Shown: positions 7,283 to 34,840, numbered from the stretch's first letter. The stretch: 64,000 nt of DNA from an uncultured Bacteroidia bacterium (GCA_902784785.1 CACZWF010000003.1:2129-66128); one strand, 5' to 3'. Translations and numbers: made by a program. The notes: generated by a model not told the origin, from the sequence alone.

Positions 7283-8463
7283 CGAATATGAAGAAGACAG
7301 GTTTAATTGTTCTGGCGCTGCTCCTGCTGTTGGGCCCCGCCTGTACCAAGAGAACGGTGGATGACACGCCCCTGACGGCTCCCAAGTCTATCGTCTTGCC
7401 GCGCGATGCCTATCCTTTGGACCTGGGCACCGGACAACCTCTGACCCTCGAGTGGGACTACTCCCTGGGCGGAAATGTCCGTTATCAGGTCGTGTTCGAT
7501 AAAGCAAGCGGCGATTTCACCAATCCCATCTATGCCATCCTGAGCGACAACGGCGGCTTCCTGCCTTCCGTGACCATCAGCGCCGCGATGCTCAAAAGCG
7601 TCGCCCGCCTGGCGGGTTGCGAGGTAGGGAAGAGCGTGACCGTACGCTGGACCGTCCGCACCTTCAAGGGGTTGGAATATGTGACCGGCGTACAGGACGG
7701 AGGTCCTCGGACGCTGATTCTCACCCTTCCTTTTGAAGTGGATCCCCTGCCTTTGACGGTGACCCTCAGCGGTACGGCGGTAGAGTCCGGCAGCCGCGAG
7801 ATGGAACACAATCTGGATGTGAGCACGGATGCTTCCGTAGTTATCTCGGAGCGCAGCACCACGGTCTTCGCCTCCTTCATCAATATGACGGACGGAACCC
7901 TGCAACTGACCGATGAGCACCAACGCAAGTTCCGTTTGACGAATGACGGTAAAGTGGCCGCCTTGGAAGGTGACGAGGTTCCCGCCTCGCCCGTCCCTGC
8001 CAATCTGGTTTATCTGACGGTTGATTTTGAGAAACTCGTCTGGAAGGCTGTCCCTGTCAAGAATATCTGGTTCTGGAACCGTCCCTGGGATGTGGACAAC
8101 GCGTATCAGTCGCAGATGATTTACCAAGGAAAGGGGGTATGGAAGGTGACAGTCGATTCCTTCAAAATAGCCCTTGAAAAGAATCCCGGTTACGATTCTC
8201 GTTATCATTTCCGCATCGACTATAACGGCGCGGATACCGACCGCATCGGCCCGGGCAAGAAAGATGTCAATGTCAGCGAAATCGGCTCGGAAGGTTATTA
8301 CAACGCCTACCGCTATTCGGACGCCTATTCCTTTGCCGGCGGAGACCAGTGGGCTTATTCCTGGAAGACGCCCGAAAACGATGACTGGAACAATCATTCC
8401 GTGACCGTCACCCTCACGATGCGGGGTGAGACCTATACCCATTCGATAACCCTTAACAATTGA
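7279..8463 (+). CDS. SusE-like surface glycan-binding lipoprotein (paralog of 4847..5989)
   Basis: Lipobox GPAC; LEWDYS..YQVVFDKASGDFTNP..WTVR domain; C-terminal MIYQGKGVWK module. Confidence 0.8.
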   Translation: MTNMKKTGLIVLALLLLLGPACTKRTVDDTPLTAPKSIVLPRDAYPLDLGTGQPLTLEWDYSLGGNVRYQVVFDKASGDFTNPIYAILSDNGGFLPSVTISAAMLKSVARLAGCEVGKSVTVRWTVRTFKGLEYVTGVQDGGPRTLILTLPFEVDPLPLTVTLSGTAVESGSREMEHNLDVSTDASVVISERSTTVFASFINMTDGTLQLTDEHQRKFRLTNDGKVAALEGDEVPASPVPANLVYLTVDFEKLVWKAVPVKNIWFWNRPWDVDNAYQSQMIYQGKGVWKVTVDSFKIALEKNPGYDSRYHFRIDYNGADTDRIGPGKKDVNVSEIGSEGYYNAYRYSDAYSFAGGDQWAYSWKTPENDDWNNHSVTVTLTMRGETYTHSITLNN

Positions 8464-8472
8464 TAAGAAGAG

Positions 8473-9942
8473 ATGAAAAGGCTGATACTATTGGCTGTGA
8501 TGGCGCTGGCCGCTTCCTGTGGGCAGCCTTGTGGAAAAGATAATCTGGCGGTGGATGTGCCGCAGGCTTTGATTGAGGCCCAAGGGCCGCGTGACTATAC
8601 CTGCCGGCGACCCGCCGAACAGGACCGTTTGTTCACCTCCCGGGCCGTGGAGCAGACCATCGCCCAGGTCCAGTCCCAGTTGACCAATCCGACCCTGGCT
8701 TGGATGTTCGGCAACTGCTTCCCCAACACCTTGGACACCACGGTGCATTTCCGGGAAGACAGCGACGGCTCTCCCGAGACCTTCGTCTATACGGGCGACA
8801 TCCACGCGATGTGGCTGCGTGACTCCGGCGCCCAGGTGTGGCCCTACGTCCGCCTGTGCGGAGAAGACGAGCCCCTGCGCCTGCTGATTGCCGGTGTGAT
8901 TAACCAGCAGTTCAAACTCATCACCTTCGACCCTTATGCCAATGCCTTCAACGACGGGCCTACGGGCGGGGAGTGGATGTCCGACAAGACGGATATGCGT
9001 CCCGAGGTGCACGAGCGTAAATGGGAGATTGATTCCCACTGCTATCCCATCCGCCTGGCCTACGCCTATTGGAAAAAGACGGGGGATGCGAGCGTGTTCG
9101 GCGCTCCTTGGCTGGCCGCCATTCAATTGACGCTCAAAACCTTCAAAGAACAGCAGCGTTTCGATGGTTTCGGCCCCTACACTTTCCAGCGCTGCACCGA
9201 GCGTCAACTCGACACCAAGTGCTGCAACGGCATGGGCGCGCCCGTCAAGCCCTGCGGCCTGATTGCTTCCGCGTTCCGTCCTTCCGACGATGCGACGACC
9301 TACGAATTTCTGATTCCCTCCAACTTCTTTGCCGTGAGCGCTCTGCGCAAGGCGGCCGAGATTTTGGAAACCGTCAACGGGGATGAGGAACTGGCCTCCG
9401 AATGCCGCTCGCTGGCGGACGAGGTGCAGGCTGCCCTGAATCAATACGCGGTCGTGAACCATCCCGTCTGGGGAAAAATCTACGCCTTTGAGGTGGATGG
9501 CTTCGGCAACGCCTTGATGATGGACGATGCCAACGCCCCCAGCCTGCTTTCCCTGCCTTATCTGTGCGATGTGCCCCTCGATGACAAGATTTATCAGAAC
9601 ACCCGCCGCTTTGTCTGGAGCGACAGCAACCCTTATTTCTTCAAGGGAAAAATGGCGGAAGGAATCGGCGGTCCGCACATCGGTTATGATATGGCTTGGC
9701 CGATGAGTCTCATTATGAAGGCCCTCACTTCCACGAAAGACGCTGAAATCAAATCTTGTGTCGAATTGCTGATGCTCACCGACGCCGGAACCGGATTTAT
9801 GCACGAATCGTTCCATGTGGACAACCCGGCCGACTTCACCCGTCCTTGGTTCGCCTGGCAGAACACCCTCTTCGGAGAGTTGATTCTGGACCTGATTGCC
9901 AAAGGAAAACTTGATTTGCTCAACTCCATAACCGTAGAATAA
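8473..9942 (+). CDS. Glycoside hydrolase family 125 exo-alpha-1,6-mannosidase
   Basis: GH125 motifs FPNTLDTT, TGDIHAMWLRDS, ERKWEIDS, MDDANAPSLL, HESF, FTRPWFAWQN. Confidence 0.94.
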   Translation: MKRLILLAVMALAASCGQPCGKDNLAVDVPQALIEAQGPRDYTCRRPAEQDRLFTSRAVEQTIAQVQSQLTNPTLAWMFGNCFPNTLDTTVHFREDSDGSPETFVYTGDIHAMWLRDSGAQVWPYVRLCGEDEPLRLLIAGVINQQFKLITFDPYANAFNDGPTGGEWMSDKTDMRPEVHERKWEIDSHCYPIRLAYAYWKKTGDASVFGAPWLAAIQLTLKTFKEQQRFDGFGPYTFQRCTERQLDTKCCNGMGAPVKPCGLIASAFRPSDDATTYEFLIPSNFFAVSALRKAAEILETVNGDEELASECRSLADEVQAALNQYAVVNHPVWGKIYAFEVDGFGNALMMDDANAPSLLSLPYLCDVPLDDKIYQNTRRFVWSDSNPYFFKGKMAEGIGGPHIGYDMAWPMSLIMKALTSTKDAEIKSCVELLMLTDAGTGFMHESFHVDNPADFTRPWFAWQNTLFGELILDLIAKGKLDLLNSITVE

Positions 9943-9951
9943 TTTTTCCGA

Positions 9952-12900
9952 ATGAACCGTCCGTTTCGTTATTTGATGATTTCCGTATTGCTTCTTCTGG
10001 CTTGCGCCAAGGAGACGGCTCCCGTCGAAGAGTCCTTGCGCCCTGCGTCCGGCTCGTATGAGACGATGATTTTCAAGGCTGATACCGATGAGGGACTCAA
10101 GACGACCTTGGGCTCCGACCGGACCATCCGTTGGCAGTCCTGGGATAAGATTTCGGTCTTCAGCGGACCGAATGCCGCTGGACAGACTTTTACCGTAAAA
10201 TCGTTGGATAACGAGAATAAAACGGCTCATTTCGAGGGTCTGGGACTTCCTGCCGAGCAATACTACGCGCTCTCGCCGGCACAGAACCTGGCCTCCATTT
10301 CCAACGGCATCCTGACCGCCTCGATGCCGCTGGTACAGGGTGTGCTGCAAAACAGTTTCGGAGCTCAGGCCAATCTCTCGGCCGCTCAGTCGGATGGAAT
10401 CTCGGATGTGTTCTATTTCCGGAATGTGGGGGCCATTCTAGCCGTCAAACAGCAGAACAGCGGGGTTGTCGGTATCCGAATCGAAGCGTTGAACAACCAG
10501 AAGATGACCGGTGAGGCGACCATTTCTTTTGATGAAAATAGCCTGCCGTTTGTCGTTCCCACGCAAAACGCCCACGACTATGTGCTGTTGAACGGCGCCT
10601 TCACGGCGGGAGATATCTATTATGCCTCGGTTTTTCCCGGAGATTATACTTCCGGTTTCCGTGTCACTCTCTACCGCCCGGGCAGTTGGGTGTCGTTTAC
10701 GAATTCCACACCCCTGCGTCTGGAGCGCAATCAAAATGTCCTGTTGGCCGAGCTCCCGCTGGTCGCGGAAGAAAAATGGAAGAACTCCGGAACAGTTTCC
10801 CTTGAGGGGAGCGGTCCTGAACAGGGACGCAAATTGGCTTTTGTCGGGAATACGTACGGCGATATGAATATTTCTCGAAATCGCGGTACGCAGATCGAGG
10901 CTTTTGCCCAAGATGAATACAATTATGAAATTTTCACTCGTCTGGAAAAGGGGAAGGCGGTTTATTTCAAAGACGAGCAAAACAAACTTTACACGATTGC
11001 CGACGGATGGGCGTTGCCGATTCAGCGGGTCGAAGAAGCTTGCGCGCCCGGCATTGATGCGGATGGCGTGTATCGCGTGCGTGTGCAACTTCCCTACGGC
11101 AAGGCCTATCTGCAGCCTGTCACCGAGGTGAAATGCAACCGGAGCGGAACCGACATCGCCACCTTGGATTATGTCTCCAATGGTGTATGGACTGCTTCCG
11201 GTGTATCTCTGTCCGGAAGCGAGACACGGTATAAATTCCATTTTACCATTGACGGACAGACACAGGTATATGGGAGAATGGCCAATACGGATGCCACTCC
11301 TACGTCCGAGACAGCCCCTTCCTATTATTATGTGCAGCCGGCCGCTATGGATCAGTGGGAACCTGCTTTCAAGTTCAGCTCCGGCTATGCCAATGTCAGC
11401 AATCGTTACTTTGCTGATTTGACTCTGTCGATGAATGAAGATGCCGGCCATTATACCCATCAATTCATTTTGCTGGACGCGGAAAATCTTCCCGACATCG
11501 AAAATGGCGATGAGATGTTCATCCGGGGCCCCGGCGCGATGGAAGCCGGACAACAACTGGCCTATGTCACGGATGCCTGGCGCAATACCAGCCTGAGCGG
11601 AGCCGGAGAGCCCGCCTCTATCCGCGGCCCCGAGGGCTATAATTACGAGATTTTCACCAAACTGGAAAAAGGCAAGAAATTCTGGTTTGTCGATGAGAAA
11701 AAAGGTTGCAAGTATGCTCCGAATGCGGATGCGACCGCATTGGAACCGGTGGCTTCTCCTTCACAGGTCGCTTACGCCGGCGTGGGCGTGACCGGGGTGT
11801 ACCGCATTCGGATGAACTTCCTCACCGGTGTGTTGAGCATCTTCCGGGTGGACATCGCCAATTTCAAGCAGCCGGCCTCCTCTTATGGGCAGAATATGAC
11901 CTATGCCGGAAACGGTACCTGGCGTCTCGAGCGTTTCGACATCCGTTGGAAGAACCAAAGTTGGAATTCCCACGAAGATCGTTACAAATTCGCCTTGTGG
12001 ATTTCGTACGATGCCAGCGGCCAGCAATATATCAACCAGTGGTTCGATATGGCCAACTTGGTTCCCAACGACCGTCCTTCCACGCGCTCCGACATCGGCA
12101 CGAACTATTTCTATGTGCAGCCTTTCAATACTTCGGATTGGAACGGTTGCTTCAAGTTCCCTGATTATCTTTGTTCCAACCAAGCCGATGTGGCGACGAT
12201 GCGGGCGACGGTCTCCTTGTGTCTGAATCCGGATGCCGGTTGTTATTCCCATTCCTTCACCCAAGAAGAAGCCGTGGATGCCACGCCGGTCTATACGGCC
12301 TTGCAAGCGACTTCCTCGGAAGAATCTTTTGACCTTCATCTGAGTGCCAACGGCACGGTGTTCGAAGGCGTTTCCACCTTCATGCAAGGGGCGAATGTCA
12401 CTTGTGTGGCAACGGACGAGTTGGGTCGTAAAAGCAATGTTTCCTATCCTTCTTCCGTGACCGGCGTCGCCTATATGGTGGTCAGCCGCGATCTGTCTTC
12501 CGCCTCCTTCACGTCGCTGGGCGAACTTCTGGCGGAAGGAAATGCCGTCAACGGGTTCAGTGACCGTTCAGGAGCTACGCTGCCGTATGTGGGCAAGGGC
12601 GTATTCCGCGGGACGAACCTGACTTTTGCCGGCTCTGCGGAAGGAGCGGCCGACGCGATGACGCCGACCTATCCCTTCAGCCGGTACGGACGCGCCCGGT
12701 TTACCTTTATCAAACCCAGCAGCAGTTATAGTCCTCAGTTCCGCCGTTTGGACGGTTCCCGGATGGCGTTGGAAAACAGCGCTTATGGCAATACCTCCGA
12801 GATGCAGATCAATCCCGGTGTCTATGACATCACGGTGGACTTGCGCAATTTTACCCTGCAGATTCTCCCTAAACATAGTTCGCGTCGCCGTATCACGGTG

Positions 12901-13968
12901 ATGGGTTCTTCCGTTCCCACCGGTACGGGCGCGACCGACAACAAGGGCTATATGTATCTCTATGCTCAAAATGCGCTGACTTCCGGCTGGCTCCTTTCCA
13001 ACCGAAGCGTTCCCGGAAACAACACCATCACCTTGACCGAGCGCTATGATGATATTCTGATGGATGCGGGGGAATATGTGGTGTATGCTTTGTCTTTGGG
13101 TAATGAGGGCATTCACGGAGCCGCAGACCAGAATGCAGTCAGCGCGCAGTGGAAAAATAATATGAAACGCTTGATCGAGCGTTCCCGCAAGGAAGGCAGA
13201 AAGGTGGTGGTGACCGCCAACTACGGTCGGGGTGATTTCAACGCATCGGATTATGCACAGGTCAAGGCGGTCAATTTGGAAATTCAGCAGTGGGATGTAC
13301 CTTCGCTCAACCTGCTGGGCTCCGTGGACGACGAGGCGGGTCATTGGCCCTCCGGTTACCAGAACGGCGACGATGTCTCCCATCCCAACGATGCGGGGCA
13401 CGCGGAAATGTCCTATACGCTCGTCCCGTCCCTGTTTGATGCGATGGATGCCGGCAAAGCCCTGCCGACCCGTCAAACGGAGGGCCATTTGGACCTGGGC
13501 AGCCGTTCCCTGCGTTTCACGCCCGAAGCGACCGTCCATCCTTTCACCGTAGCCTGCTATGTGAAGACGACTTCGACCGGAACGATTCTGACGGTCAAGA
13601 CAGCGGATGGGCAGAAAGCCGTTTCTGCGGACAAGGCTTTGGTGGCCGGCGGCCGGCTCAACGACGGCAACTGGCATCTGCTCGCCTTCACCCACTATTA
13701 TGCCCAAGGCGTCTCCGTCTTGTATGTGGATGGCGTGGAGCAAAGCCGTGAGAACGAGCGTCTGGTTCCGCAGAACTTCACGGTTGGCCCTCACGCGAGC
13801 GGCAAGGAACTCTTCTTCTGGCGTTCCGCGATGAACGGTCTGGAAATGCAGGCTCTCGCCGAAGGCAAGATGCTCAAGTCTTCTCTTGAGCTCTACGCGC
13901 CCCTTCTCTCCGGTTCGCTCACCAACCTCGCCCCCTCCACCAACAGTTCCCTGACTTTAGGGGAGTAA
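9952..13968 (+). CDS. Multidomain lipoprotein A: fimbrillin-like head + 2 repeat modules + SusE/F-like domain + SGNH/GDSL esterase + LamG-like domain
   Basis: Lipobox LLAC; fimbrillin-type KTTL..IRWQSWDKISVF; two YNYEIFT..RYKF..VQP..HYTH/CYSH modules; SGNH blocks (VMGSS, PGNN, LGNEG, DDVSHPN); LamG-like DGNWHLLAFT..VLYVDG. Confidence 0.75.
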   Translation: MNRPFRYLMISVLLLLACAKETAPVEESLRPASGSYETMIFKADTDEGLKTTLGSDRTIRWQSWDKISVFSGPNAAGQTFTVKSLDNENKTAHFEGLGLPAEQYYALSPAQNLASISNGILTASMPLVQGVLQNSFGAQANLSAAQSDGISDVFYFRNVGAILAVKQQNSGVVGIRIEALNNQKMTGEATISFDENSLPFVVPTQNAHDYVLLNGAFTAGDIYYASVFPGDYTSGFRVTLYRPGSWVSFTNSTPLRLERNQNVLLAELPLVAEEKWKNSGTVSLEGSGPEQGRKLAFVGNTYGDMNISRNRGTQIEAFAQDEYNYEIFTRLEKGKAVYFKDEQNKLYTIADGWALPIQRVEEACAPGIDADGVYRVRVQLPYGKAYLQPVTEVKCNRSGTDIATLDYVSNGVWTASGVSLSGSETRYKFHFTIDGQTQVYGRMANTDATPTSETAPSYYYVQPAAMDQWEPAFKFSSGYANVSNRYFADLTLSMNEDAGHYTHQFILLDAENLPDIENGDEMFIRGPGAMEAGQQLAYVTDAWRNTSLSGAGEPASIRGPEGYNYEIFTKLEKGKKFWFVDEKKGCKYAPNADATALEPVASPSQVAYAGVGVTGVYRIRMNFLTGVLSIFRVDIANFKQPASSYGQNMTYAGNGTWRLERFDIRWKNQSWNSHEDRYKFALWISYDASGQQYINQWFDMANLVPNDRPSTRSDIGTNYFYVQPFNTSDWNGCFKFPDYLCSNQADVATMRATVSLCLNPDAGCYSHSFTQEEAVDATPVYTALQATSSEESFDLHLSANGTVFEGVSTFMQGANVTCVATDELGRKSNVSYPSSVTGVAYMVVSRDLSSASFTSLGELLAEGNAVNGFSDRSGATLPYVGKGVFRGTNLTFAGSAEGAADAMTPTYPFSRYGRARFTFIKPSSSYSPQFRRLDGSRMALENSAYGNTSEMQINPGVYDITVDLRNFTLQILPKHSSRRRITVMGSSVPTGTGATDNKGYMYLYAQNALTSGWLLSNRSVPGNNTITLTERYDDILMDAGEYVVYALSLGNEGIHGAADQNAVSAQWKNNMKRLIERSRKEGRKVVVTANYGRGDFNASDYAQVKAVNLEIQQWDVPSLNLLGSVDDEAGHWPSGYQNGDDVSHPNDAGHAEMSYTLVPSLFDAMDAGKALPTRQTEGHLDLGSRSLRFTPEATVHPFTVACYVKTTSTGTILTVKTADGQKAVSADKALVAGGRLNDGNWHLLAFTHYYAQGVSVLYVDGVEQSRENERLVPQNFTVGPHASGKELFFWRSAMNGLEMQALAEGKMLKSSLELYAPLLSGSLTNLAPSTNSSLTLGE

Positions 13969-13993
13969 TTATTAGAAGTATTTAAGGGCAAAT

Positions 13994-14024
13994 AAAAAGG
14001 GCTGGCCGGAACGGTCAGCCCTTT
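13994..14024. terminator. Intrinsic terminator hairpin between convergent lipoprotein genes A and B
   Basis: 13-bp stem aaagggctggccg / cggtcagcccttt with one G-T pair and a gaa loop; A/T runs on both sides. Confidence 0.8.
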
Positions 14025-14050
14025 GCTGTGTGTATGGGTGAAGTTCAAGT

Positions 14051-17000
14051 TTAGTTGTTGATGTCGATATGGAAGCGGAACGGCTCGGTATGGAACCAGA
14101 AGGTCACATCTTTGTCCCTCAAAACGTTGTCGCTTTCATGACCCGATGCATCAAGGGGCTTGGCCAGACAGTCATAACGATCCACGCCATAGTCAAAACG
14201 ATAGAGATAAGCATTGTGTGTCGCGCCGTCAATCCATCCCCACTCCCATCCTGCGGAGCAAGTTGTTTTGGGAGATGAAGAGTTATAGTCGGAATTCGTC
14301 AGCATCTTCATGCGGAAACGGTCGTCGTTTCTTCCTTGCGAATCAGACCAAGTCGACCAATTGGTGTTTCTGGCATACCAGTGTCCGTTTCCATTATAGG
14401 TCATATTCATATAATCCCTATCTTGAGCACCCCAATAGTAGGGCTGGTTCCACACCACCATTCCGTAAATTCTTGTCTCTGAACTGCTGGTCCCGGAAGG
14501 ATCGAATACAAAATCATAGATGTTTCCGTTTTCGTTGAAGGAAGTGTAGACTTGTTCCGTAACATTGGCGTCAATTTGTCCGTTGCTGCGTCTTGTATAG
14601 TAGGTCCCGTTGTTGTCTCGAACATAGACGTTGCCGTTATTAAATATACGTATCAGTTCGTAAACACCACTGCTGTAAGACGTGACAGGAGAAGCCTTGG
14701 TTCCGGAAGCGAGATAGCCATAGAGCGCAATTGCTTCGCCTGTTTCTGTCGCGCCGCTGACACTATAGCCGGTCACCGCACCGCTGGGCTTGTCGCTTTC
14801 AATATTGGCGAATTCGTGCGTGTAGTGATTTCCCTCGTTCGTGTTGTTCAGATACAGCAGCAGGTCTGTCCTGTAGCAGTCGCGATATAAATCATCTTTC
14901 AAGGTGCTGGGGAAATTGAAACCCGGGTCCCAGGTGTTGACCTTGCTCGGCTGAACGAAGTAGTCATCCAATGCTGTCCGGTCGGATTTATTATAGTCGT
15001 CTTTAACCTTGTTGCGACCGAAGTGTTGCTCCGTTCCTCCCAATACCACTTTGAAATGATATCTTGTTTCCGCTATCGTCACGTCGTATGAGGAAAACTC
15101 TCTCCATTTGATACGCAGGTTTTTCTTTTGCCAAACTCCTTTGCGGAGATAGGTCAATTCTTCGGTGATATTGCTGTTTCCATAATAATAGTACACGTGA
15201 TCGACCGTGGTGATGTACGCCGCGCCGGAAGGCAGGTCGAGGCGGATACGGTAGATGCCGTCGGCGGGTACGAGATAATCTCCATCCGTCGGACTTATAC
15301 TTTGCGTGGGGGTGTCACCATCTTCATTGAGTGTGAAGTACACATTGTTGGTCCCATAAAAATGAATTTTCTTGCCACCGGTCAGCTGTGTGAAAATTTC
15401 ATAGTTATAAGTTTCATCTTTGAACGTATCGACGTCTCCGGCATTGAGTTCGCCCGTGTTATAATAACTGTCTGAGATATAAGAAACGGCTTGTCCCGCT
15501 TCCGCTGCGCCTTCACCGCCAATGTACAGCGCGTCTCCCACGCTGAATTCAGGAAGATTCTCAGAATCGATTATATCGGTCACCGCATGTGTGTAGTGAT
15601 CCTCATCGTTGTTCATATATAAGGTCAGATTGCAATATATGCGGTCTGTGGTGATGTTTTTGTATGCTTCAGGGAACTTGAAGCCGGGCTCCCATTCATT
15701 GTTGTCTGCCGGCTGAACATAGCCATATTTAGTCATTGTTTCATAGACGGGATAACCGCCTGTGTTGCTCCACCTCCCGTAATATTGTATCGAACTGTCT
15801 CCAAATGTAAATTTGAATTTATACCGATCGTCCCAAGTGGCCGATCCTCTTTTGATTGGCATTTTTTGGATGCCCCAAGTTCCCCTTTGGGTATAGGTCA
15901 GACTGCGTGTTCCCACACCGTTGTGTGAGTATTCCACATTGCTGATTATCTTGATCTCCGCATTCTTGTTGTCCGAATTGATGCGGATTCGATAAATGCC
16001 GTCCGATGCGACGCTATATGAAGCGGCGCTTGCGTTGGCGAGGGCGGTCCAGCTTGTGCCACCTGTCGCCAAGGCAAAAAACTTGTTTCCTGCTTCATTT
16101 TGGAAATAGAAGTTCTGCCCGGCTTTCAGTTTCGTGAAAATCTCGTAGTCATAGGGGTAAGATGCCAATTGGCTGTCCGAATGATTGATGGAAGGGGCCC
16201 AATAATCATCAGACCCGACATAAGCCAATGACTGTCCGGCTTCCGGAGAATTCTGAATGGTGAGTTTTTCGCCGGCATCAATTCCGGGAAGATCCTGTGT
16301 GTCCACTTCGTTTTCAAACGCGTGGGTGTAATGCGCTTTTTCCGCATTCATATAAACCACGAGGTCGGCCAGGTAGCGCTCGTCGTGATCATTGTCAACC
16401 AGCCAGGACGGGAGTTTGAATTTGGAATTCCATTGGTTCGTCACGCAGGGCTGGAGATACCAATAGGTGCTGCCGCTCTCTTTGGTCGGCGCGCTGTCGG
16501 TCGTGTGGCGCGTGCCATATTGTTGGTCATTCCCGCCGATGGTGAAATAGAATTTGTACCGGTTGTCGTAATGTGATTCATCGTTACAATCGCGGCGGAT
16601 GGGCATCCGTTCCCGCTTCCACACACCGCGTCCCGCGTAGGTCAATTCCCGGTTGTTGGCAGTTGACCAGCAATGTTTGTAGTAGGCTGCCGTGACTTTC
16701 TGCACATATGCGTTGCCGGAGGGCAGATTGACGCGGATGCGGTACACACCCGTGCTGGCGACCGTGCCGACCGCCTCGGAAGGGCCGGTGATTTCGCTGA
16801 CGCTGTTGCCGTCCGCACTGACGGAGAAATAATGTCCGCCGCCCCGCAGCCAGTATTTCTTGCCGGCTGTCAACTTGGTGAACCATTCGTAATTGTAGTT
16901 CCCGGTCTGATCGGAGAACGCCGTGGCGTCGCCTCCGCTCTGCTCGGTATAATCCCAATAACCGTCCGCCGCCGTATAGACGCCTTTTTGGCCGGTTTCA

Positions 17001-17881
17001 GTGCCCAAGCCGTCGATGTACATATCCGTGCCGACGACAAAATCCGATCCGGACCATTTGCCGGAACTCTGGGGATTAAAGGGCGTTTTTCCGAAACTTC
17101 TGTATTTGTTGCGTGTGAATGTGGCGGAATTGCTGTTGTTGTACACCGCCTTGTATCCCGGTTTGTAGAACGTCAGGGTGAGACCGCCGGCGTGCGTTCC
17201 CGGAAGAACGACGAAATAGTAGGTGTTGCCTTTTTCAAAATCTCCAGAGAGACGGACGGTGGGGGAGCCGTTGAGGGTGGAAAGTTCGGGCACGCCTTCG
17301 TTGTAGGTGATGTTCACCTGACCGGCGAGCGGTGTGCCGTCCTTGGAGGTGATTTCAATGGCCGTGATGTTGTCATTGTCGGCATCGTCTCCCAAGGTGA
17401 TGCTGACCAGAGAGCCGACATTCTTGAAGTCCAAGCGGCTTCCGCCCGTCTGGGCGATGGAGACATTGGCTTCCGCTCCGAAGGAATTGGCGACGGCGGT
17501 CTGCTCTCCGTCAATGCGCGCGGTGATCACGCCTCCGCTGATGCTGGCCATCTCCTGCACGGGCGACAAAGCATAGTAAGTGTCCGTGACGGCGGCATAT
17601 CCTTGGAAAGTGGCCGACTTGCCGCCTTCCGCCACCTTCTTGACCAGGAATTCGTTGGCGTCCCCGTCTGCGAAAATGGTGATGTTGTCGCTGCTCGACC
17701 AGCGAATGTTCAGTCCTTCCAGCGAGGTTTTCGTGTCCTCGTCCACATTGCCGTCAAAGGTCATCGCCACCTTTTCGCGTAAAACGGATTCTTTTTCCGC
17801 CGTTTCTTTCTGACAGGCAAAGAGCGACAGGCTCAGTGCCGCTAACATTAAAATGCGTACTGTTTTCATCGTCTCTTTCAT
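14051..17881 (-). CDS. Multidomain lipoprotein B: fimbrillin-like head + 3 repeat modules + 1 divergent SusE-like module (start reassigned to 17881 or 17869)
   Basis: Signal MKTVRILMLAALSLSLFAC; DTKTSL..IRWSSSDNITIF; three modules ending HYTH; the last module resembles the C-terminal parts of 4847 and 7279. Confidence 0.8.
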   Translation of the reverse strand: MKETMKTVRILMLAALSLSLFACQKETAEKESVLREKVAMTFDGNVDEDTKTSLEGLNIRWSSSDNITIFADGDANEFLVKKVAEGGKSATFQGYAAVTDTYYALSPVQEMASISGGVITARIDGEQTAVANSFGAEANVSIAQTGGSRLDFKNVGSLVSITLGDDADNDNITAIEITSKDGTPLAGQVNITYNEGVPELSTLNGSPTVRLSGDFEKGNTYYFVVLPGTHAGGLTLTFYKPGYKAVYNNSNSATFTRNKYRSFGKTPFNPQSSGKWSGSDFVVGTDMYIDGLGTETGQKGVYTAADGYWDYTEQSGGDATAFSDQTGNYNYEWFTKLTAGKKYWLRGGGHYFSVSADGNSVSEITGPSEAVGTVASTGVYRIRVNLPSGNAYVQKVTAAYYKHCWSTANNRELTYAGRGVWKRERMPIRRDCNDESHYDNRYKFYFTIGGNDQQYGTRHTTDSAPTKESGSTYWYLQPCVTNQWNSKFKLPSWLVDNDHDERYLADLVVYMNAEKAHYTHAFENEVDTQDLPGIDAGEKLTIQNSPEAGQSLAYVGSDDYWAPSINHSDSQLASYPYDYEIFTKLKAGQNFYFQNEAGNKFFALATGGTSWTALANASAASYSVASDGIYRIRINSDNKNAEIKIISNVEYSHNGVGTRSLTYTQRGTWGIQKMPIKRGSATWDDRYKFKFTFGDSSIQYYGRWSNTGGYPVYETMTKYGYVQPADNNEWEPGFKFPEAYKNITTDRIYCNLTLYMNNDEDHYTHAVTDIIDSENLPEFSVGDALYIGGEGAAEAGQAVSYISDSYYNTGELNAGDVDTFKDETYNYEIFTQLTGGKKIHFYGTNNVYFTLNEDGDTPTQSISPTDGDYLVPADGIYRIRLDLPSGAAYITTVDHVYYYYGNSNITEELTYLRKGVWQKKNLRIKWREFSSYDVTIAETRYHFKVVLGGTEQHFGRNKVKDDYNKSDRTALDDYFVQPSKVNTWDPGFNFPSTLKDDLYRDCYRTDLLLYLNNTNEGNHYTHEFANIESDKPSGAVTGYSVSGATETGEAIALYGYLASGTKASPVTSYSSGVYELIRIFNNGNVYVRDNNGTYYTRRSNGQIDANVTEQVYTSFNENGNIYDFVFDPSGTSSSETRIYGMVVWNQPYYWGAQDRDYMNMTYNGNGHWYARNTNWSTWSDSQGRNDDRFRMKMLTNSDYNSSSPKTTCSAGWEWGWIDGATHNAYLYRFDYGVDRYDCLAKPLDASGHESDNVLRDKDVTFWFHTEPFRFHIDINN

Positions 17882-17882
17882 T

Positions 17883-18020
17883 TTAATCCCAATCATCATA
17901 GTCATCATCCTGCTCATAACCCTCGCTCATGCTCGGGTCGCAGAACACCAGCTCGGCATCCGTGTTCAGTGTGAAGCACCGGGGCTGCTCGTAGCGATTG
18001 AATATTTTTTTGCGTATCAT
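17883..18020 (-). CDS. Small 45-aa peptide MIRKKIFNRYEQPRCFTLNTDAELVFCDPSMSEGYEQDDDYDDWD (not in ORF track)
   Basis: Read manually from the minus strand; stop lies 1 nt before the ATG of gene B; clear paralog at 20499..20651; promoter immediately upstream. Confidence 0.78.
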   Translation of the reverse strand: MIRKKIFNRYEQPRCFTLNTDAELVFCDPSMSEGYEQDDDYDDWD

Positions 18021-18048
18021 CGTTTCTTTTATTCGCATTTTTACGATG

Positions 18049-18103
18049 CAAAGGTATGGAATGGGAGTCTATCCGTAGTACGAAAATATGAAAAAAGAGT
18101 ACG
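18049..18103 (-). promoter_or_regulatory. Promoter -7 box (TACCTTTG) with upstream CGTAC-N16-CGTAC direct repeat (candidate activator site)
   Basis: caaaggta at 18049-18056; gtacg at 18078 and 18099 (21-bp period); identical geometry at 20688-20742. Confidence 0.7.
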
Positions 18104-18124
18104 ATTTTCGGCAATCGTACTCTT
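18091..18124 (-). terminator. Intrinsic terminator of lipoprotein gene C
   Basis: Perfect 12-bp stem aagagtacgatt / aatcgtactctt, 6-nt loop, T-run on the minus strand, ~25 nt after the stop at 18149. Confidence 0.8.
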
Positions 18125-18148
18125 CTTTCCATTCCGTTGGGTCAACGG

Positions 18149-20485
18149 CTATTGCAGCGTGTCTTTCACATCGGTGAAACGATGGGTGTAATGACCGTAG
18201 GTGTCATTCATATAGGCGCTGACTGTGGCGGTATAACGTCCGTTGTGGTCGTCGTCCGTCATCCAGGAACCATAGACGAAGATCTGCTCCCAGTTTTGGC
18301 CCGTATACGGTTGGAGATTCCAATATGAACCATCGTCATCCTGTGCGGGACGGGCGTTGCCTTTGTTGGTCGTGGAGCCGAACACCTGCCATACATCGAT
18401 GCTGTCTCCATTGTGGTCTTTGTTGAACCACATCTTCAAGATATAGCGTCTCAAGTGGGCGTCCCAACTCTCCACACCCCATTCTATGACCTGGTCCTCT
18501 TTGCTCCAGACACCGTTGCCGATGTAATTCAGCGAATAATTGACGCTGTTGTGGTATTGGAGTTCCACTCGGACCTGATCGATGCGGCGGATGCAGCATT
18601 TGCCTGTGGCAAAATTAGCCCGTATGCGCCAGATGCCATCGTTCTTGACCGTATAAGACGCTTTTTTAGGGGCGGCAATTTTCGCCATCGCATTCCCGTC
18701 GGAGACCGGGGCGAAATATTTGCTGCCGTCGGCGGTGGAGAAGTAAATTTTTTCTCCGGCCGTCAGTCGCGTATAGATTTCATAGTCATAGTCGCCAATG
18801 GCGTCGGTGTCGATGTTGGAGGCGTCGCCAAAGTTGTTCATCGCCGTATTATAGTATCCGCTAGCCCCGACATAAACCATCTTTTGCCCGGCCTCGGTGC
18901 TCCCTCCGATGAAGATGTTTTCTCCCGGGGTGATATCGGGCAGGTTTTGGCTGTCGCGTACGTTGGTGATGCTATGCGTGTAATGGCTGTTGCTGTTGTT
19001 CATCGTGACGGTCAGATCGCCGTAATATCGGTCCTCGTCGACCTCGCAAACAGAGGGGAACTTGAAGCAAGGTTCCCAATTGTCGCTGTTGTCACAGGGC
19101 TGGACATAGAAGTAGTCATCGCTCGTCGTTCCGTAGGTGGGGTTGCCTTTGTTGGTGCTCCAACGGCCATAGTAGGCTGTGCTTTCATCCGTAAAATGGA
19201 AGACGAATTTGTAGCGGTTGTTCCAACTTTGGGAATTTCTGCGCATTGACAGGTCCTTGTATTCCCAAACGCCGTTTCCTACATAGTTGAGGTCGGCGCC
19301 CAGCACGGAATACTGAGAGTACGCGAGGCGGGAAATCTGCTGTACGGCAGCGGTGCCGGAAGGCAACACCATACGGATGCGATAGATTCCGTCCGCGGGA
19401 GCGGCGTAATCGGCCTGCGAGTCTTTCTTGATGCCCGCGACCTGCGTTCCTTCCGCATTCAGGGCAAAGAGATAGTTGCCTTCACTCTGGAAATAGAATT
19501 TCTGTCCGGCTGTCAGACGGGTGAAGATTTCATAGTTATACGTACCGTCGTTCAGGTAGTGGTCCGTCGAGGTGTTCCAATAGTCTGCCGGGATGTAAGA
19601 GAGCGCCTGTCCATCTTCGGCGGAATTGCGGATGCGGACGGCGTCGCCCACAGCGAAAGCTTCGTCGGCGCGCCAGTCGCTGTCAGGCACCGTGAAGTCG
19701 GCCAACAGGTAATTGCTGTTGCGGGCGACATCGACGGCTTTGCTGTCGGCATACACGGCTTTGTAACCGTCCTTCTGATAGGTGATGCGGAGGCCGGAAG
19801 CAAAATTGCCGGGGAATACTGTGCAATAGTAGGTTTGTCCCGCTTCGAAGGAACCGGAAAGGGTCACCTTTGTCAGCGCGGAGGTCACCGTCACGCTCGG
19901 TTCGCCGTCGTTGTAGGCGATCTGGGCGGTTCCCGCCAGGGCTTCACCGCCGATGCTTTCCACCGAAATGCCGGTCAGTCCGCTGTTGCGAACCGTAATG
20001 GCCATCAACGCGCCTACATTCTTAAATAAAAGGTTGCTGTCGGAGGACTTGGCCACCGCCAGATTGGTCTTGTCGGCAAAACTGCCGGTAGTTGCCACCT
20101 GCGTGCCCGAGAGCGTAGCCGTGATGACGTCGCCGGAAATGCTCGCGGTATTGGACGCGGGATAGAGGGCGTAATAAGTGTCGAACAGAGTGGAAATACC
20201 GCTGAATGTGACACTGCGGGCATCTTCACTCAGACTCTCCACGGTATATATGGAACCTACACCGGCGGAGAATACGGTGATGTTGTCCGTCATATTCCAG
20301 AGGATATGGTTGTCGGAAGCGAGGGCAGTCCGCGTGCCGGCATCCTCTCCCTGGGCGGTAAAGGTCATTTTTTGCTTGTTCCCCGAGTCGGAAGCAGGAT
20401 TTTCGGGGGCTTCTTTCTGGCAAGCAGCCAGCGTTATCAGCGCCAATGCGCTTACTGTCAGTAGTCTCAAAGTTTTCATAATCAT
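18149..20485 (-). CDS. Multidomain lipoprotein C: fimbrillin-like head + 2 repeat modules (start reassigned to 20485 or 20479)
   Basis: Signal MKTLRLLTVSALALITLAAC; GTRTAL..ILWNMTDNITVF; two YNYEIFT/YDYEIYT..HYTH modules homologous to those of A and B. Confidence 0.8.
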   Translation of the reverse strand: MIMKTLRLLTVSALALITLAACQKEAPENPASDSGNKQKMTFTAQGEDAGTRTALASDNHILWNMTDNITVFSAGVGSIYTVESLSEDARSVTFSGISTLFDTYYALYPASNTASISGDVITATLSGTQVATTGSFADKTNLAVAKSSDSNLLFKNVGALMAITVRNSGLTGISVESIGGEALAGTAQIAYNDGEPSVTVTSALTKVTLSGSFEAGQTYYCTVFPGNFASGLRITYQKDGYKAVYADSKAVDVARNSNYLLADFTVPDSDWRADEAFAVGDAVRIRNSAEDGQALSYIPADYWNTSTDHYLNDGTYNYEIFTRLTAGQKFYFQSEGNYLFALNAEGTQVAGIKKDSQADYAAPADGIYRIRMVLPSGTAAVQQISRLAYSQYSVLGADLNYVGNGVWEYKDLSMRRNSQSWNNRYKFVFHFTDESTAYYGRWSTNKGNPTYGTTSDDYFYVQPCDNSDNWEPCFKFPSVCEVDEDRYYGDLTVTMNNSNSHYTHSITNVRDSQNLPDITPGENIFIGGSTEAGQKMVYVGASGYYNTAMNNFGDASNIDTDAIGDYDYEIYTRLTAGEKIYFSTADGSKYFAPVSDGNAMAKIAAPKKASYTVKNDGIWRIRANFATGKCCIRRIDQVRVELQYHNSVNYSLNYIGNGVWSKEDQVIEWGVESWDAHLRRYILKMWFNKDHNGDSIDVWQVFGSTTNKGNARPAQDDDGSYWNLQPYTGQNWEQIFVYGSWMTDDDHNGRYTATVSAYMNDTYGHYTHRFTDVKDTLQ

Positions 20486-20498
20486 AGAAGATTGATGA

Positions 20499-20651
20499 TT
20501 AAAGATCCGTTTCCCAGCCATTGTCGCTGTCATACTCGATTTGACCGGAAAAAGCCTCCCCGGTGCTGGGGCCGCAGAATACGATTTCCGCCGAGACAGG
20601 CACCAGCCGGCTGACGGGTGTTTCGTACAATTTCATTTTGTCTTTTTTCAT
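20499..20651 (-). CDS. Small 50-aa peptide MKKDKMKLYETPVSRLVPVSAEIVFCGPSTGEAFSGQIEYDSDNGWETDL (not in ORF track)
   Basis: Read manually from the minus strand; paralog of 17883..18020 with YExP, AExVFCxPS and an acidic W-containing tail; lies between promoter and gene C. Confidence 0.78.
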   Translation of the reverse strand: MKKDKMKLYETPVSRLVPVSAEIVFCGPSTGEAFSGQIEYDSDNGWETDL

Positions 20652-20687
20652 ATTGTTTTGAATTTGTTTTGGCATTTTTCAACAATG

Positions 20688-20804: not shown

Positions 20805-23243
20805 ATGAAAAAATCACTCTTTTTCCTTCCGCTTCTGGCGCTGCTCGCGTGCAGTACGAGCCAGGAAGATTACACCGCGTATGTCAACCCCAATATTGGC
20901 ACCGTGCACAGCCGCTGGTTCGTCTATACGCCGGCCGCGCTGCCCTTTGGCATGGCCAAACTGGGCGCCTCCACCAACGGCACCTATGGCAACAAGGACG
21001 GCTGGGAGGCCGTGGGCTATGAGGATACGCATCGTTCCATCGACGGTTTCCCTTGTTTTCACGAATTCCAGGTCGGTGGTCTGGCGCTGATGCCCGTCTG
21101 CGGACCCGTCAAAACCGTTCCTGGATTGCTGGAAAATCCCGATGAGGGCTGGCGTTCCCGTTTCGAAAAAGCGGACGAAGAAGCCCACCCCGGTTATTAC
21201 AAAGTGGTTTTGAGCGATTATGCGACGAAAGTGGAATTGACCGCTACCAAGCGGGTGGCCTACCAGCGATTCACCTTCGGTGCGGCGCCCTCCGATTCAG
21301 AATCGCAGCCCGCGTTGGATTCGACGGACCGTCATATCCTTATTAATATAGGTACGCGTCAGGGCGAGAGTGGAGCGGTTCGCGACGCGAAGGCCGAGAC
21401 CGACGGCAAGCATCTCTGGGGCTATGTGGTGACCGAGCCCGAATATGTCAAACGCTACCAAAGCGGGGCTTCCGTGTCGATGTTTTTCTATGGAGACCTG
21501 TCGGCGGCCCCTGCGGGTGTGAGCACCTTCACCGTGGGCGGTCCACTGGGAGAAAGTGCGGCGCTGGAGGACAAACTTCCTGTCGCCCAAGGGCCCGGAG
21601 CCGTCCTCTGCCTGGATTATCCCAATCAGGAGCAGGTGACCGTCCGTCTGGGTCTTTCCTATACCTCTGTCGATAACGCGCGCAAGAATTTTGAGACGGA
21701 AGTCTTGGGTTCGGCGGATGCGCTTTCTGCGGAAGCGACCGATGGCTTGTCCTTCGACGAGGTTCGCGATGCGGCGCATCAGATTTGGCAGGACGAACTT
21801 TCCAAACTGGCTGTCAGCGGCGGAACGCAGGAAAACAAAAATAAATTCTACACCGGTCTGTATCACGCCTTGCTGGGCCGTGGCTTGGCCAGCGACTGCA
21901 ACGGGGCCTATCCCCGCAACGACGGAACGATCGGGCAGATTCCTCTGAACGAGGATGGTACGCCGGTTCACAACCACTACAACACCGACGCTATCTGGGG
22001 CGGTTACTGGAACCTCACTCCGCTCTGGGCGCTGGCTTGGCCGGAGTACTACAACGACTGGGTGTCGAGTCAACTGCTGGTCTATCAGGACGCGGGATGG
22101 CTGGGCGACGGTATCGCCTGCAGCCGTTATGTGTCCGGTGTGGGCACCAATATGGTCAGCGTGGCTTTCGCCGGGGCCTACAACAGCGGCATCCGTTCCT
22201 ATGATATCGACAAGATGTACGCGGCGGCCCGCAAGGACAATCTGGAATGGACGGACCGCATCCCGGGCGCCGGAAAAATGGATGTGGAACGCTTCGTCAA
22301 AGACGGCTATGTCCCCTATGTCGACGGCTGGGTGGCGGATTCTAGAGGAGCGACTTTCTCCGTTTCCCATACCCTTGAATATGGTTTCAGCGCCTACGCC
22401 ACGGCCCAAATGGCCAAACAGTTGGGTAAGGAAGACGATTACCGTCAGTTGATGGGTCTTTCCGACGGCTGGGCCAAACTTTTCGACGACGGCTGCAAAA
22501 TGGTCCGTCCGCGTGTGCCCGGTGGCGCTTTTATCGAGCCTTTCGACCCCTTGGAGTCCTGGCGCGGTTTCCAAGAGGGGAATGCGATGCAATATACCTA
22601 CTTTGTGCCGCAGAACCCTGATTCTCTGGTCACCCGGATGGGGGCGGAAGTGTTCAATGAACGCTTGGATTCCATCTTCACCGAGGCCCGCAAGAGCATC
22701 TTCGGCGGCGGCAAGACGGCCTACGCCTTCTCCGGCTTGAGCAGTCCCTACAACCACGGCAACCAGCCCAGTCTCCACATTCCTTGGCTGTTCAATTTCT
22801 CCGGTCAGCCGGCTTTGACCCAGAAATGGGTGCGGCTGATTTGCGAGGAATTCTATGGTACGGACGGGGAACACGGATACGGTTACGGACAGGATGAAGA
22901 CCAGGGCCAACTCGGTTCTTGGTTTGTACTCTCCTCGATGGGGCTGTTCGATGTGCAGGGCGGAGCGCCGGAGCGGCCTACCTACCAATTGGGTAGCCCC
23001 GCTTTCGACAAAATCGTCATTCGCCTGAGCCCCTTCAACGCTTCCGGCAAGACGCTGACCATCCGTACGCACGGCGGCGGGTCCGGTCGCTATTATGTCC
23101 AGTCGGCGAAGTTCAACGGAAAGTCTTTGGACCATTGCTGGCTCTATCGCGACGAAATCTATCAGGGCGGAACGCTCGACCTCGTTCTTTCCGACCAACC
23201 CTCCGACTGCTGGGATGCTTCCGTTCCTCCCGTCTGCCGTTAA
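20805..23243 (+). CDS. Glycoside hydrolase family 92 alpha-mannosidase lipoprotein
   Basis: Lipobox LLAC; GH92 motifs YVNPNIGT, PFGM, FYTGLYH, SHTLEY, FQEGNAMQY, NHGNQP, DEDQGQLGSWFV. Confidence 0.94.
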   Translation: MKKSLFFLPLLALLACSTSQEDYTAYVNPNIGTVHSRWFVYTPAALPFGMAKLGASTNGTYGNKDGWEAVGYEDTHRSIDGFPCFHEFQVGGLALMPVCGPVKTVPGLLENPDEGWRSRFEKADEEAHPGYYKVVLSDYATKVELTATKRVAYQRFTFGAAPSDSESQPALDSTDRHILINIGTRQGESGAVRDAKAETDGKHLWGYVVTEPEYVKRYQSGASVSMFFYGDLSAAPAGVSTFTVGGPLGESAALEDKLPVAQGPGAVLCLDYPNQEQVTVRLGLSYTSVDNARKNFETEVLGSADALSAEATDGLSFDEVRDAAHQIWQDELSKLAVSGGTQENKNKFYTGLYHALLGRGLASDCNGAYPRNDGTIGQIPLNEDGTPVHNHYNTDAIWGGYWNLTPLWALAWPEYYNDWVSSQLLVYQDAGWLGDGIACSRYVSGVGTNMVSVAFAGAYNSGIRSYDIDKMYAAARKDNLEWTDRIPGAGKMDVERFVKDGYVPYVDGWVADSRGATFSVSHTLEYGFSAYATAQMAKQLGKEDDYRQLMGLSDGWAKLFDDGCKMVRPRVPGGAFIEPFDPLESWRGFQEGNAMQYTYFVPQNPDSLVTRMGAEVFNERLDSIFTEARKSIFGGGKTAYAFSGLSSPYNHGNQPSLHIPWLFNFSGQPALTQKWVRLICEEFYGTDGEHGYGYGQDEDQGQLGSWFVLSSMGLFDVQGGAPERPTYQLGSPAFDKIVIRLSPFNASGKTLTIRTHGGGSGRYYVQSAKFNGKSLDHCWLYRDEIYQGGTLDLVLSDQPSDCWDASVPPVCR

Positions 23244-23255
23244 ACAAAATAGTTT

Positions 23256-24968: not shown

Positions 24969-25003
24969 GGCGGCTTAACGGAGGTCGGGAGACTTGCGGC
25001 CGC

Positions 25004-26155: not shown

Positions 26156-26223
26156 AGGCGTTGAAATTGTTGTGCAAGATAGCGAAATTTTAGTATCTTT
26201 GCAAGACTGAAAACGAATTGAAA

Positions 26224-33991: not shown

Positions 33992-34840
33992 ATGCAATTC
34001 TGGCTTGTAACAACGGATCATCTTACCGATAGATTGTGGTTCAAAGATGATGAGGATTTCAGAACGGGGATGAACATCCCGCCCTTGCTGGCGGCATCTA
34101 TGCCAGTGAACATCCTCTCTTTCATTTTAATGTCTAACCACGTTCATTTCGTTCTTTCTTGTTCACAGCACGATGCAGAAACTTTTATCAATCGCTTCAA
34201 GAAACTGTATTCCCAACGCTATTCCAAGAAGTATGGCTCCCAATCGCTTCTGCTCAATAACGGCATCGATATCCGTGAACTCTTTTTGGACGGGGAGTCC
34301 TTGGAGAAAGGTATCGCCTATGTTCAAATGAATTGCGTCGGAGCCAATATCTCTTTAAATCCGGCGGATTATCCCTGGGGAACCGGGAATGTATTCTTCC
34401 GTATTCAAACCCCCAAGGGAATCTGTGTCGGGGATATGGGTGTCAGAGAGTTGCGACGGTATGTGCACAGCAGATTGTCTCTTCCAGGATCTTATGTGAT
34501 AATTGACGACGGATTTGTTGATCCGGCATCCTATGTCAATGTGGCATTCGTTGAATCTTTATTCCGAACACCGAAGCGGATGAATTATTTCCTTCAAAAT
34601 TCCTCCAAAGCGAAACTTGTCCGTGAGGCTCCGTCTTTTGGTGATCAGATGGTTCTTTCTGGAATGAAAAGCCTGTGCCTATCCCTATTTAGAAAACAGA
34701 ATATTTCCGACCTGCTGGAGTCGGAACTGTCAGAACTTCTGAAACAAATCCGCTATCGTTTTTCGGCAGACCCGGGGCAGATTGCCCGCGTTTCGGGAAT
34801 CTCCTATGAAATGGTCTGCCGTCTTTTAGATTCCATCTGA
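33992..34840 (+). mobile_element. REP-associated tyrosine transposase (RAYT / Y1_Tnp HUH family) with C-terminal HTH-like extension
   Basis: HUH motif FILMSNHVHF, catalytic-Tyr region AYVQMN, DYPWGT; flanked by REP-like palindromes; AT-richer than neighbours. Confidence 0.8.

Follow-up and report, generated by a model that had tools for sequence, protein, structure and literature searches.

Predicted type V pilin-fold heads carry tandem copies of a candidate mannan-binding module in an alpha-mannan utilisation locus of rumen Bacteroidales

Introduction

What role do lipoproteins with a pilin-like head play in a locus dedicated to the use of a polysaccharide? This question is raised by a stretch of 64,000 nucleotides from an uncultured Bacteroidia bacterium (GCA_902784785.1 CACZWF010000003.1:2129-66128), which is referred to here as the window. 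Three of its genes, which we call A, B and C, lie inside an alpha-mannan polysaccharide utilisation locus (PUL), and each encodes a lipoprotein composed of an N-terminal head followed by tandem copies of a large repeated module. An earlier note on this DNA had proposed that the heads are pilin domains onto which glycan-binding modules were grafted, giving pilus-borne or extended multivalent mannan adhesins. PUL-encoded surface glycan-binding proteins (SGBPs) and pilin N-domains that carry adhesive payloads are each already known separately. Our literature searches found no relevant pilin-like SGBP and no relevant carbohydrate-binding module (CBM) for alpha-mannan, and three things appear to be undescribed in them: the combination of an SGBP with a pilin N-domain within a PUL, a rare and confidently folded module that tracks GH76 and mannan loci, and a small open reading frame (ORF) coupled to the head genes.

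Here we present a computational analysis of these proteins and of their relatives. We favour, as rather better than an even bet, a reading in which B and C act at the cell surface as multivalent glycan-binding proteins and A is an esterase tethered there, with the pilin-fold head acting as a pedestal and the module binding mannan.

Results

Three paralogous lipoproteins share a head and a repeated module

The products of A, B and C are paralogous lipoproteins, with 33-37% identity over ~770 aa (E 1e-104 to 1e-141), and all have the same architecture: a ~250-aa head followed by two (A), three plus one divergent (B) or two (C) copies of a ~245-aa module. Gene A (9952..13968) is located on the plus strand and encodes 1338 aa, and B (14051..17881; 1276 aa) and C (18149..20485; 778 aa) are located on the minus strand and converge on A. 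The coordinates given in the earlier note were right, and the strand of B and C is a correction to it; the note had also left unmentioned that A bears an SGNH hydrolase and a LamG-like domain, and had overlooked a conserved small ORF upstream of head genes. The AT skew of about -0.15 over B and C (14001-20000) fits minus-strand coding. The mechanical ORFs of B and C extend farther upstream, to 17917 and 20533, respectively; the starts at 17881 (M13 of the B ORF) and 20485 (M17 of the C ORF) agree with the signal peptides and with the N-termini of homologues. Residues of B and C are numbered below according to these ORFs unless stated otherwise.

All three proteins begin with a lipobox, as the earlier note had stated. 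From the sequence, these are LLLAC18 in A, SLFAC in B and TLAAC in C, the lipobox cysteines being C18, C35 and C38, respectively. In each case the cysteine is directly followed by (A/Q)-K-E. This triplet resembles the surface-export signal of Bacteroidota lipoproteins that Lauber et al. reportedly described in 2016.

The head is predicted to adopt the type V pilin fold

The heads of A (10006..10779, plus strand; aa 19-276), B (17045..17812, minus strand; aa 36-291) and C (19664..20419, minus strand; aa 39-290) have no match in Pfam, NCBIfam or the PDB in sequence and profile searches. Structure prediction was more informative. An AlphaFold2 model of the C head, built from an alignment of 29 heads, reached a pLDDT of 91 and a pTM of 0.86, and a Foldseek search of the PDB with this model returned 3UFI (E 2.6e-7) and 4DGU (E 3.4e-5) as the best matches, both with a probability of 1.00. 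They were followed by 4JG5, 3UP6, 3LIU and 3PAY (probability 0.98-1.00 for 3UFI through 3PAY), and further matches were the Mfa2 anchor of Porphyromonas gingivalis (5NFI; probability 0.97) and the accessory pilin Mfa4 (5DHM; 0.77). The best matches are Bacteroides and Parabacteroides "putative cell adhesion proteins", and 3PAY is regarded as a putative anchor pilin (PMC5789003). The TM-scores are modest, only 0.3-0.5, and membership among the pilins therefore holds at the level of the fold. At that level, the model places the head in the type V pilin (FimA/Mfa) structural superfamily, with its fold of an N- and a C-terminal beta-sandwich in transthyretin-like arrangement, in agreement with what had been expected for the N-domain; for the A head, the fold is derived from the model of the C head. 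The Pfam family Mfa_like_1 (PF13149) is matched by 2 of the 29 head relatives (E 9.7e-6), A, B and C themselves being unmatched, and it is also carried by the relatives P0393 and P0422.

The head's N-terminal part bears the features expected of a pilin precursor. The C head model (pLDDT 91) opens with the strand KQKMTFTAQG (aa 53-62), which is followed by a loop of low pLDDT and then by R68, within TRTA. In A, the anchor-strand motif TMIFKA precedes K50 within LKTT, and in B, AMTFDG precedes K63 within TKTS. The pattern M-x-F-x-A ... [TS]-[KR]-[TV]-x-L ... W runs throughout the alignment of heads, and the basic residue, to which the earlier note had drawn attention in these three K/R motifs, is present in 29/29 of them. 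Counted from the likely start codons, this residue is K50 in A, K51 in B and R50 in C; the cleavage sites of established pilins are R46 in FimA, R49 in Mfa1, R43 in Mfa3 and R54 in Mfa4 (PMC5789003, PMC13655056). Because lipobox, anchor strand, K/R loop and pilin fold are all present, the head, as judged from its alignment and its model, appears to show all the hallmarks, in sequence and in structure, of a cleavable type V pilin precursor. The chain of the head runs on into the modules, which leaves the head without a free C-terminal donor strand, as in tip and adaptor pilins (PMC13655056).

A repeated module that accompanies GH76

A hidden Markov model (HMM) of the module finds seven strong copies in A, B and C (E ~1e-94 to 1e-104). 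Two are in A (10780..11469, aa 277-506, E 5e-94; 11482..12270, aa 511-773, E 1.1e-99; plus strand), three in B (16301..17044, aa 292-539, E 4e-102; 15566..16297, aa 541-784; 14798..15565, aa 785-1040, E 2.6e-103; minus strand) and two in C (18953..19660, aa 292-527, E 3e-101; 18161..18952, aa 528-791, E 1.2e-102; minus strand). The HMM match to the divergent fourth module of B (14054..14797, minus strand; aa 1041-1288) is weak, and hhalign recognises this copy with a probability of 90.8% (E 1.2e-6), so that the counts of 2, 3(+1) and 2 previously read from the sequence are upheld. The GC content falls to 0.47 at 14-16 kb, which corresponds to modules 3 and 4 of B. The region between the second module and the hydrolase domain of A (12271..12900, plus strand; aa 774-983) has no Pfam match; aa 774-980 were considered as a third module and ruled out, the hhalign probability being 3%.

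Two SusE-like lipoproteins of the same locus also end in the module. The first (4847..5989, plus strand) has a Pfam SusE domain at aa 33-126 and a module-like domain at aa 186-368 (nt 5402-5950; E 3e-16), and the second (7279..8463, plus strand) has them at aa 41-126 and aa 202-391 (nt 7882-8451; E 1.6e-9), respectively. The kinship of these C-termini with the module had been noticed before; the matches span about three quarters of the module, and not only its second half as had been thought. The locus thereby encodes ten modules in total.

The module of B that was modelled (aa 541-784) has a pLDDT of 93 and a pTM of 0.91, and is predicted to be nearly all beta and a single rigid unit. The invariant or nearly invariant residues are Y50, Y52, E53, R104, R106, Y136, W142, Q196, W203, N230 and Y236; these positions are enriched in Tyr, Trp, Arg, Glu, Gln and Asn and are mostly aromatic or polar, as would be expected for a sugar-binding site.

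The module is rare: among 1.84 billion cluster representatives searched with a profile, only 310 clusters were found at E <=1e-3. About 90 of the best 150 of these 310 members consist of a SusE N-domain with one to three modules, and about 30 of a head with one to four modules. A Pfam scan of 61 members found a SusE domain in 53 and GH76 in 7. The module is located N-terminal to GH76 in P0154, P0180 and P0204, C-terminal to it in P0252, and between SusE domains and GH76 in P0167, P0170 and P0232. In the distant member P0168, the module's first half is matched by the Pfam family SusF_SusE (PF16411) with 37.9 bits, the cut-off being 27.5, and two other distant members have weaker PF16411 matches. 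Since the module occurs in tandem copies, lies on either side of GH76 and replaces the usual SusE-like binding domains in mannan loci, it is probably a new mannan-binding module, similar to a CBM and directed to alpha-1,6-mannan.

An SGNH hydrolase domain in A

Besides a head and two modules, A contains an SGNH/GDSL hydrolase domain (12901..13404, plus strand; aa 984-1151; PF13472, E 2.8e-8, above the cut-off). When aligned to the esterase 9OTV, its GSS, GNE and DxxH motifs are found intact, the last one as DDVSH. The C-terminal ~185 aa include a Laminin_G_3 core (13621..13809, plus strand; aa 1224-1286), which scores 27.6 bits, at the Pfam cut-off. The part of A that comprises these two domains (12901-13968) shares 65-76% identity across loci in rumen metagenome-assembled genomes (MAGs), as compared to 30-45% for heads and modules, indicating at the level of sequence that the enzyme part is the constrained part of A.

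Head genes, their payloads and their neighbours

The matches to the module in genomes, obtained in a scan with a 6-sequence alignment, all belong to rumen Bacteroidales MAGs (water buffalo, yak and goat) and Ca. Cryptobacteroides, and the region is contained in sequencing runs from metagenomes of gut and of bovine gut. In the loci L001-L013, synteny links the head-module genes to susC/D, SusE-like, GH76, GH125 and GH92 genes, a gene for a phosphomannose isomerase (PMI)-like protein of 570 aa and a major facilitator superfamily (MFS) transporter gene. This synteny is kept in at least 10 rumen Bacteroidales MAG loci, usually with a C-like gene ahead of an A-like one, and at times with a third.

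The heads are not confined to modules. Enzymes are carried on pilin-like heads in P0167, which consists of Mfa_like_1, SusE, module and GH76, and in the A-like proteins, which bear SGNH. Heads of the same clade that carry GLUG, LRR, Exo_endo_phos or Flg_new payloads are encoded by solitary genes amid housekeeping genes. In L020 and L021 (6188-10385), a head-only protein of 328-331 aa, preceded by a small ORF, is followed by a gene for a separate secreted protein of 1054 aa without Pfam domains, and here head and payload seem to be split over two genes. More distant, head-only relatives of 304-308 aa are found in Alistipes in clusters of three genes (7001-12351 in L022 and L023; 7001-12561 in L024), where the head-only lipoprotein is followed by a protein of 1166-1220 aa with Mfa_like_1, LRR_5 and Peptidase_M64 domains and by an Mfa_like_1 protein of 291-295 aa. 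From its gene content, this cluster looks like a minimal fimbrial operon displaying a peptidase of the IgA-protease type. In L022, it is flanked by integrase genes.

A small open reading frame upstream of head genes

In every close relative examined, and with any payload, an ORF of 42-58 aa sits 1-40 nt upstream of the head gene. In the window, one such ORF (17883..18038, minus strand; 51 aa) is located 1 nt upstream of the start of B, and another of the same family (20499..20675, minus strand; 58 aa) 13 nt upstream of the start of C; no copy is present upstream of A, which directly follows the GH125 gene, and none was detected upstream of the Alistipes head-only genes. Copies in other loci are found at 9850-9987 in L001, 9841-9987 and 16218-16376 in L003, 7835-7963 in L015, 7825-7983 in L017, 6001-6147 in L019 and 6001-6162 in L020. 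An alignment of 17 distinct copies shows invariant Y, P and W residues in the pattern Y-E-x-P...C..STGE.F...W, which is followed by an acidic tail. Between pairs of copies, different codons are used at about one third of the conserved residues, which points to selection on the small peptide itself. The family has no match in Pfam or NCBIfam, and a profile search found 122 further homologues of 40-73 aa, which are "hypothetical" or unnamed, come from Bacteroidales and contain no Pfam domain. The idea that the small peptide provides a donor strand in trans was set aside, because these ORFs do not encode a signal sequence.

The surrounding locus

The left 27 kb of the window form a PUL of an uncultured rumen or gut Bacteroidales. 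It starts with the genes of a transporter pair, susC-like (14..3157) and susD-like (3175..4830), followed by the first SusE-like gene, a gene for a lipoprotein GH76 endo-alpha-1,6-mannanase (5996..7282; its lipobox leads into C-D-D-D), the second SusE-like gene and a gene for a GH125 exo-alpha-1,6-mannosidase (8473..9942; E 1e-169), all on the plus strand. A is the final gene of this susC-susD-susE-GH76-susE-GH125 string. The other arm of the locus (20805..27198) contains GH92 (20805..23243, plus strand), the cytoplasmic PMI-like protein of 570 aa (23256..24968, plus strand), an MFS transporter (25004..26287, minus strand) and a PMI (26218..27198, plus strand). The joint presence of GH76, GH125, GH92 and PMI defines an alpha-mannan locus, as in the MAN-PULs of B. 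thetaiotaomicron (PMC4978465), and bears out the setting proposed earlier.

Some features of the neighbourhood stand apart from the head genes. Residues 222-458 of the 570-aa protein form a phosphomannose-isomerase-like cupin, with 26% identity to the PMI of the window (E 2e-23), behind an N-terminal extension of ~220 aa; the whole protein has no Pfam match and is kept at 69-80% identity in all related loci, where its gene adjoins the MFS transporter gene. Farther to the right, the sigma-54 gene (rpoN; 43995-45317, plus strand) seems to be split: an ORF with the activator-interacting and core-binding regions ends at 44867, and the DNA-binding domain, which includes the RpoN box ARRTVAKYR, follows in a different frame up to ~45317, which reflects either a frameshift or an assembly error. 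The GC content dips at 34-36 kb and at 58-60 kb. An ORF at 33992-34840 (plus strand) has a partial match to an IS200-like Y1 transposase (E 1e-5) where the GC content goes from ~0.55 to 0.45, and the DNA around it may have been inserted.

Discussion

In the reading that we favour, the lipidated cysteine together with (A/Q)-K-E would place A, B and C at the cell surface, where the pilin-fold head would serve as a membrane-proximal pedestal. The two to four tandem all-beta modules would bind alpha-mannan, most likely its alpha-1,6 backbone or the branched form of it. B and C would capture mannan or mannoprotein from fungi or yeast and keep it on the cell surface, available to the lipoprotein GH76 and to SusCD, and the single-module SusE-like proteins would do likewise nearer to the membrane. 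In A, the same pedestal and two modules would present the SGNH esterase and the LamG-like domain to the bound substrate. The ten modules encoded in the locus suggest that this substrate is polymeric or particulate, for instance yeast or fungal cell-wall mannoprotein. What the analysis shows is the domain architecture, the paralogy, the head fold, the conserved synteny and the GH76 fusions of the module; that the proteins are exposed at the surface and bind mannan, that the head is a pedestal and what the esterase acts on is what we infer.

Several observations weigh against this reading. The invariant K/R after the anchor strand is, in type V pilins, the hallmark of subunits whose lipid anchor is cut off, and a simple lipid-anchored model leaves it unexplained. 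The wider head family probably includes pilins that assemble, because the distant head-only relatives cluster with Mfa_like_1 proteins. As for the module, sequence and profile searches gave no match in Pfam, NCBIfam or the PDB, and we found neither a characterised homologue nor a match to any characterised CBM. Foldseek gave no significant match in the PDB, the best being DUF3823 (4FXT; E 0.02, probability 0.16, TM-score 0.17-0.20), and hence we do not claim a known fold for it. Given that the module has no significant structural neighbour in the PDB, it is assigned as a CBM on the grounds of its context, its fusions and a single Pfam link above the threshold, found in a distant member. Finally, the RNA evidence found for the locus consists of one 180-nt contig from a bovine gut metatranscriptome, which covers the 3' end of C (18156-18335) with 99% identity and a depth of 6.

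The alternative that survives best, though we consider it unlikely, is that A, B and C are adhesins mounted on a pilus tip or on an anchor pilin. According to this scenario, the loop is cut at the K/R, and the anchor strand is replaced by the donor strand of a stalk or anchor pilin encoded elsewhere, so that a type V pilus would bear the module array, plus the esterase in the case of A, at its end, or an anchor pilin would carry it directly. The pilin fold of the head argues for it, as do the lipobox, the M-x-F-x-A anchor strand and the invariant K/R ~30 residues past the cysteine, an arrangement found in FimA, Mfa1, Mfa3 and Mfa4 (PMC5789003, PMC13655056), and the lack of a free C-terminal donor strand, in which the head is like tip pilins (PMC13655056). 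Tip pilins with additional C-terminal ligand-binding domains are known (bioRxiv 10.1101/2024.11.15.621889), and the three-gene clusters in which head-only relatives occur with Mfa_like_1 proteins, one of them bearing LRR and the M64 peptidase, fit as well. However, the genes of known tip adhesins lie downstream of those for anchor and stalk (bioRxiv 10.1101/2024.11.15.621889), and no stalk or anchor pilin gene was found in the window among ORFs of >=250 aa up to ~55 kb, as had already been noted, nor beside any close head relative in the ~15 homologous loci examined. Moreover, among the payloads are enzymes and modules of the SGBP type, the products of which have to reach SusCD, and the processing protease is not known outside Porphyromonas. 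The proposal that these proteins are pilus-borne is therefore left without support, heads of this kind being also the carriers of GH76 and SGNH enzymes, which would be expected to act beside SusCD. A broader version of this scenario, which we hold to be a little less likely still, extends it to the whole clade of heads preceded by the small ORF: all would be tip subunits cleaved at the K/R and placed on an anchor or stalk pilin encoded elsewhere, the PUL would equip type V pili, or a minimal pair of anchor and tip, with a new family of alpha-mannan-binding modules and an esterase, and the small acidic peptide would be a dedicated accessory factor.

A different objection concerns the modules, which might not bind glycans but act as spacers, mediate protein-protein interactions (e.g. 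docking to SusCD) or constitute an unrecognised catalytic family. The failure to find a structural or sequence match to any characterised CBM is what one would expect in that case, and an active site could also be made up of the conserved E, R, H and Q. We nevertheless regard this as improbable, since tandem repeats, GH76 on either side, the replacement of the C-terminus of SusE-like proteins and the Pfam link to SusF_SusE all fit a CBM, spacer domains are usually shorter and less conserved, and tandem catalytic repeats are rare. Least credible of all is the release of A, B and C by cleavage at the K/R as soluble or vesicle-associated mannan binders and esterase: the invariant K/R in a loop of low confidence and the lack of a partner pilin gene nearby would agree with it, but even when cut, an anchor strand normally remains in place until displaced by a donor strand (PMC13655056), and multivalent binders without enzymes, such as B and C, would be of no obvious gain to the cell once free.

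If the module indeed binds alpha-mannan, it would be, to our knowledge, the first family of the CBM type that is devoted to the alpha-mannan of fungi or yeast, and it would provide a handle for the annotation of mannan PULs and a reagent for mannan detection. No CBM family that is specific for alpha-mannan and joined to GH76 is known to us, the literature searches included. The use of a pilin fold as the N-domain of PUL-encoded binders and enzymes raises the question of whether such proteins are lipid-anchored or attached by strand exchange, and the answer bears on the glycan-capture layer at the surface of Bacteroidota and on many orphan "fimbrillin-like" genes. Should the pilus-tip scenario prove true, it would tie pilus assembly directly to glycan foraging. 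The small upstream ORF represents an unannotated gene family with at least 122 members.

Comparison with known systems

Four groups of known proteins are instructive in this respect. The best structural matches of the head, the Joint Center for Structural Genomics structures 3UFI (BACOVA_04980) and 4DGU (BT0320), come from Bacteroides and are similar in size (224-278 residues); sequence identity to the head is 11-13% at a TM-score of ~0.45-0.5, and, unlike the head, they are stand-alone proteins. The module, in turn, resembles the CBMs that CAZy lists on glycoside hydrolases in that it is non-catalytic, occurs in tandem, flanks GH76 and is also present in binding proteins of the same pathway. 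It differs from them in matching no Pfam, NCBIfam or PDB entry, and its place among CBMs is one that we infer.

The tip and accessory pilins of type V pili (Mfa3-5, FimC-E, and BfrT and BthT, which are diversified by diversity-generating retroelements; bioRxiv 10.1101/2024.11.15.621889) are likewise made as lipoprotein precursors with a two-sandwich fold, and share with A, B and C an anchor strand with a conserved K/R loop behind it, the absence of a terminal donor strand and the presence of C-terminal ligand-binding domains. The genes described here, in contrast, are located in a PUL or are solitary, instead of being downstream of anchor and stalk genes, and their payload is a CBM-like array or an enzyme and not a C-type lectin or vWA domain.

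SGBPs of the SusE/SusF type (the SGBP-B class, including the uncharacterised SGBPs of the B. thetaiotaomicron mannan PULs; PMC4978465) are also PUL-encoded lipoproteins, with genes next to susCD and tandem, beta-rich C-terminal modules. A, B and C have an N-domain of predicted type V pilin fold in place of the SusE domain (PF14292), which in this locus is found in the SusE-like genes at 4847 and 7279. Their repeat is ~245 aa long, apparently made of two packed sandwiches, as against ~100 aa in the SusE/SusF type; it is present in up to four copies, and one of the paralogues, A, bears an esterase in addition. The family described here is so far confined to rumen and gut Bacteroidales MAGs and Ca. 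Cryptobacteroides.

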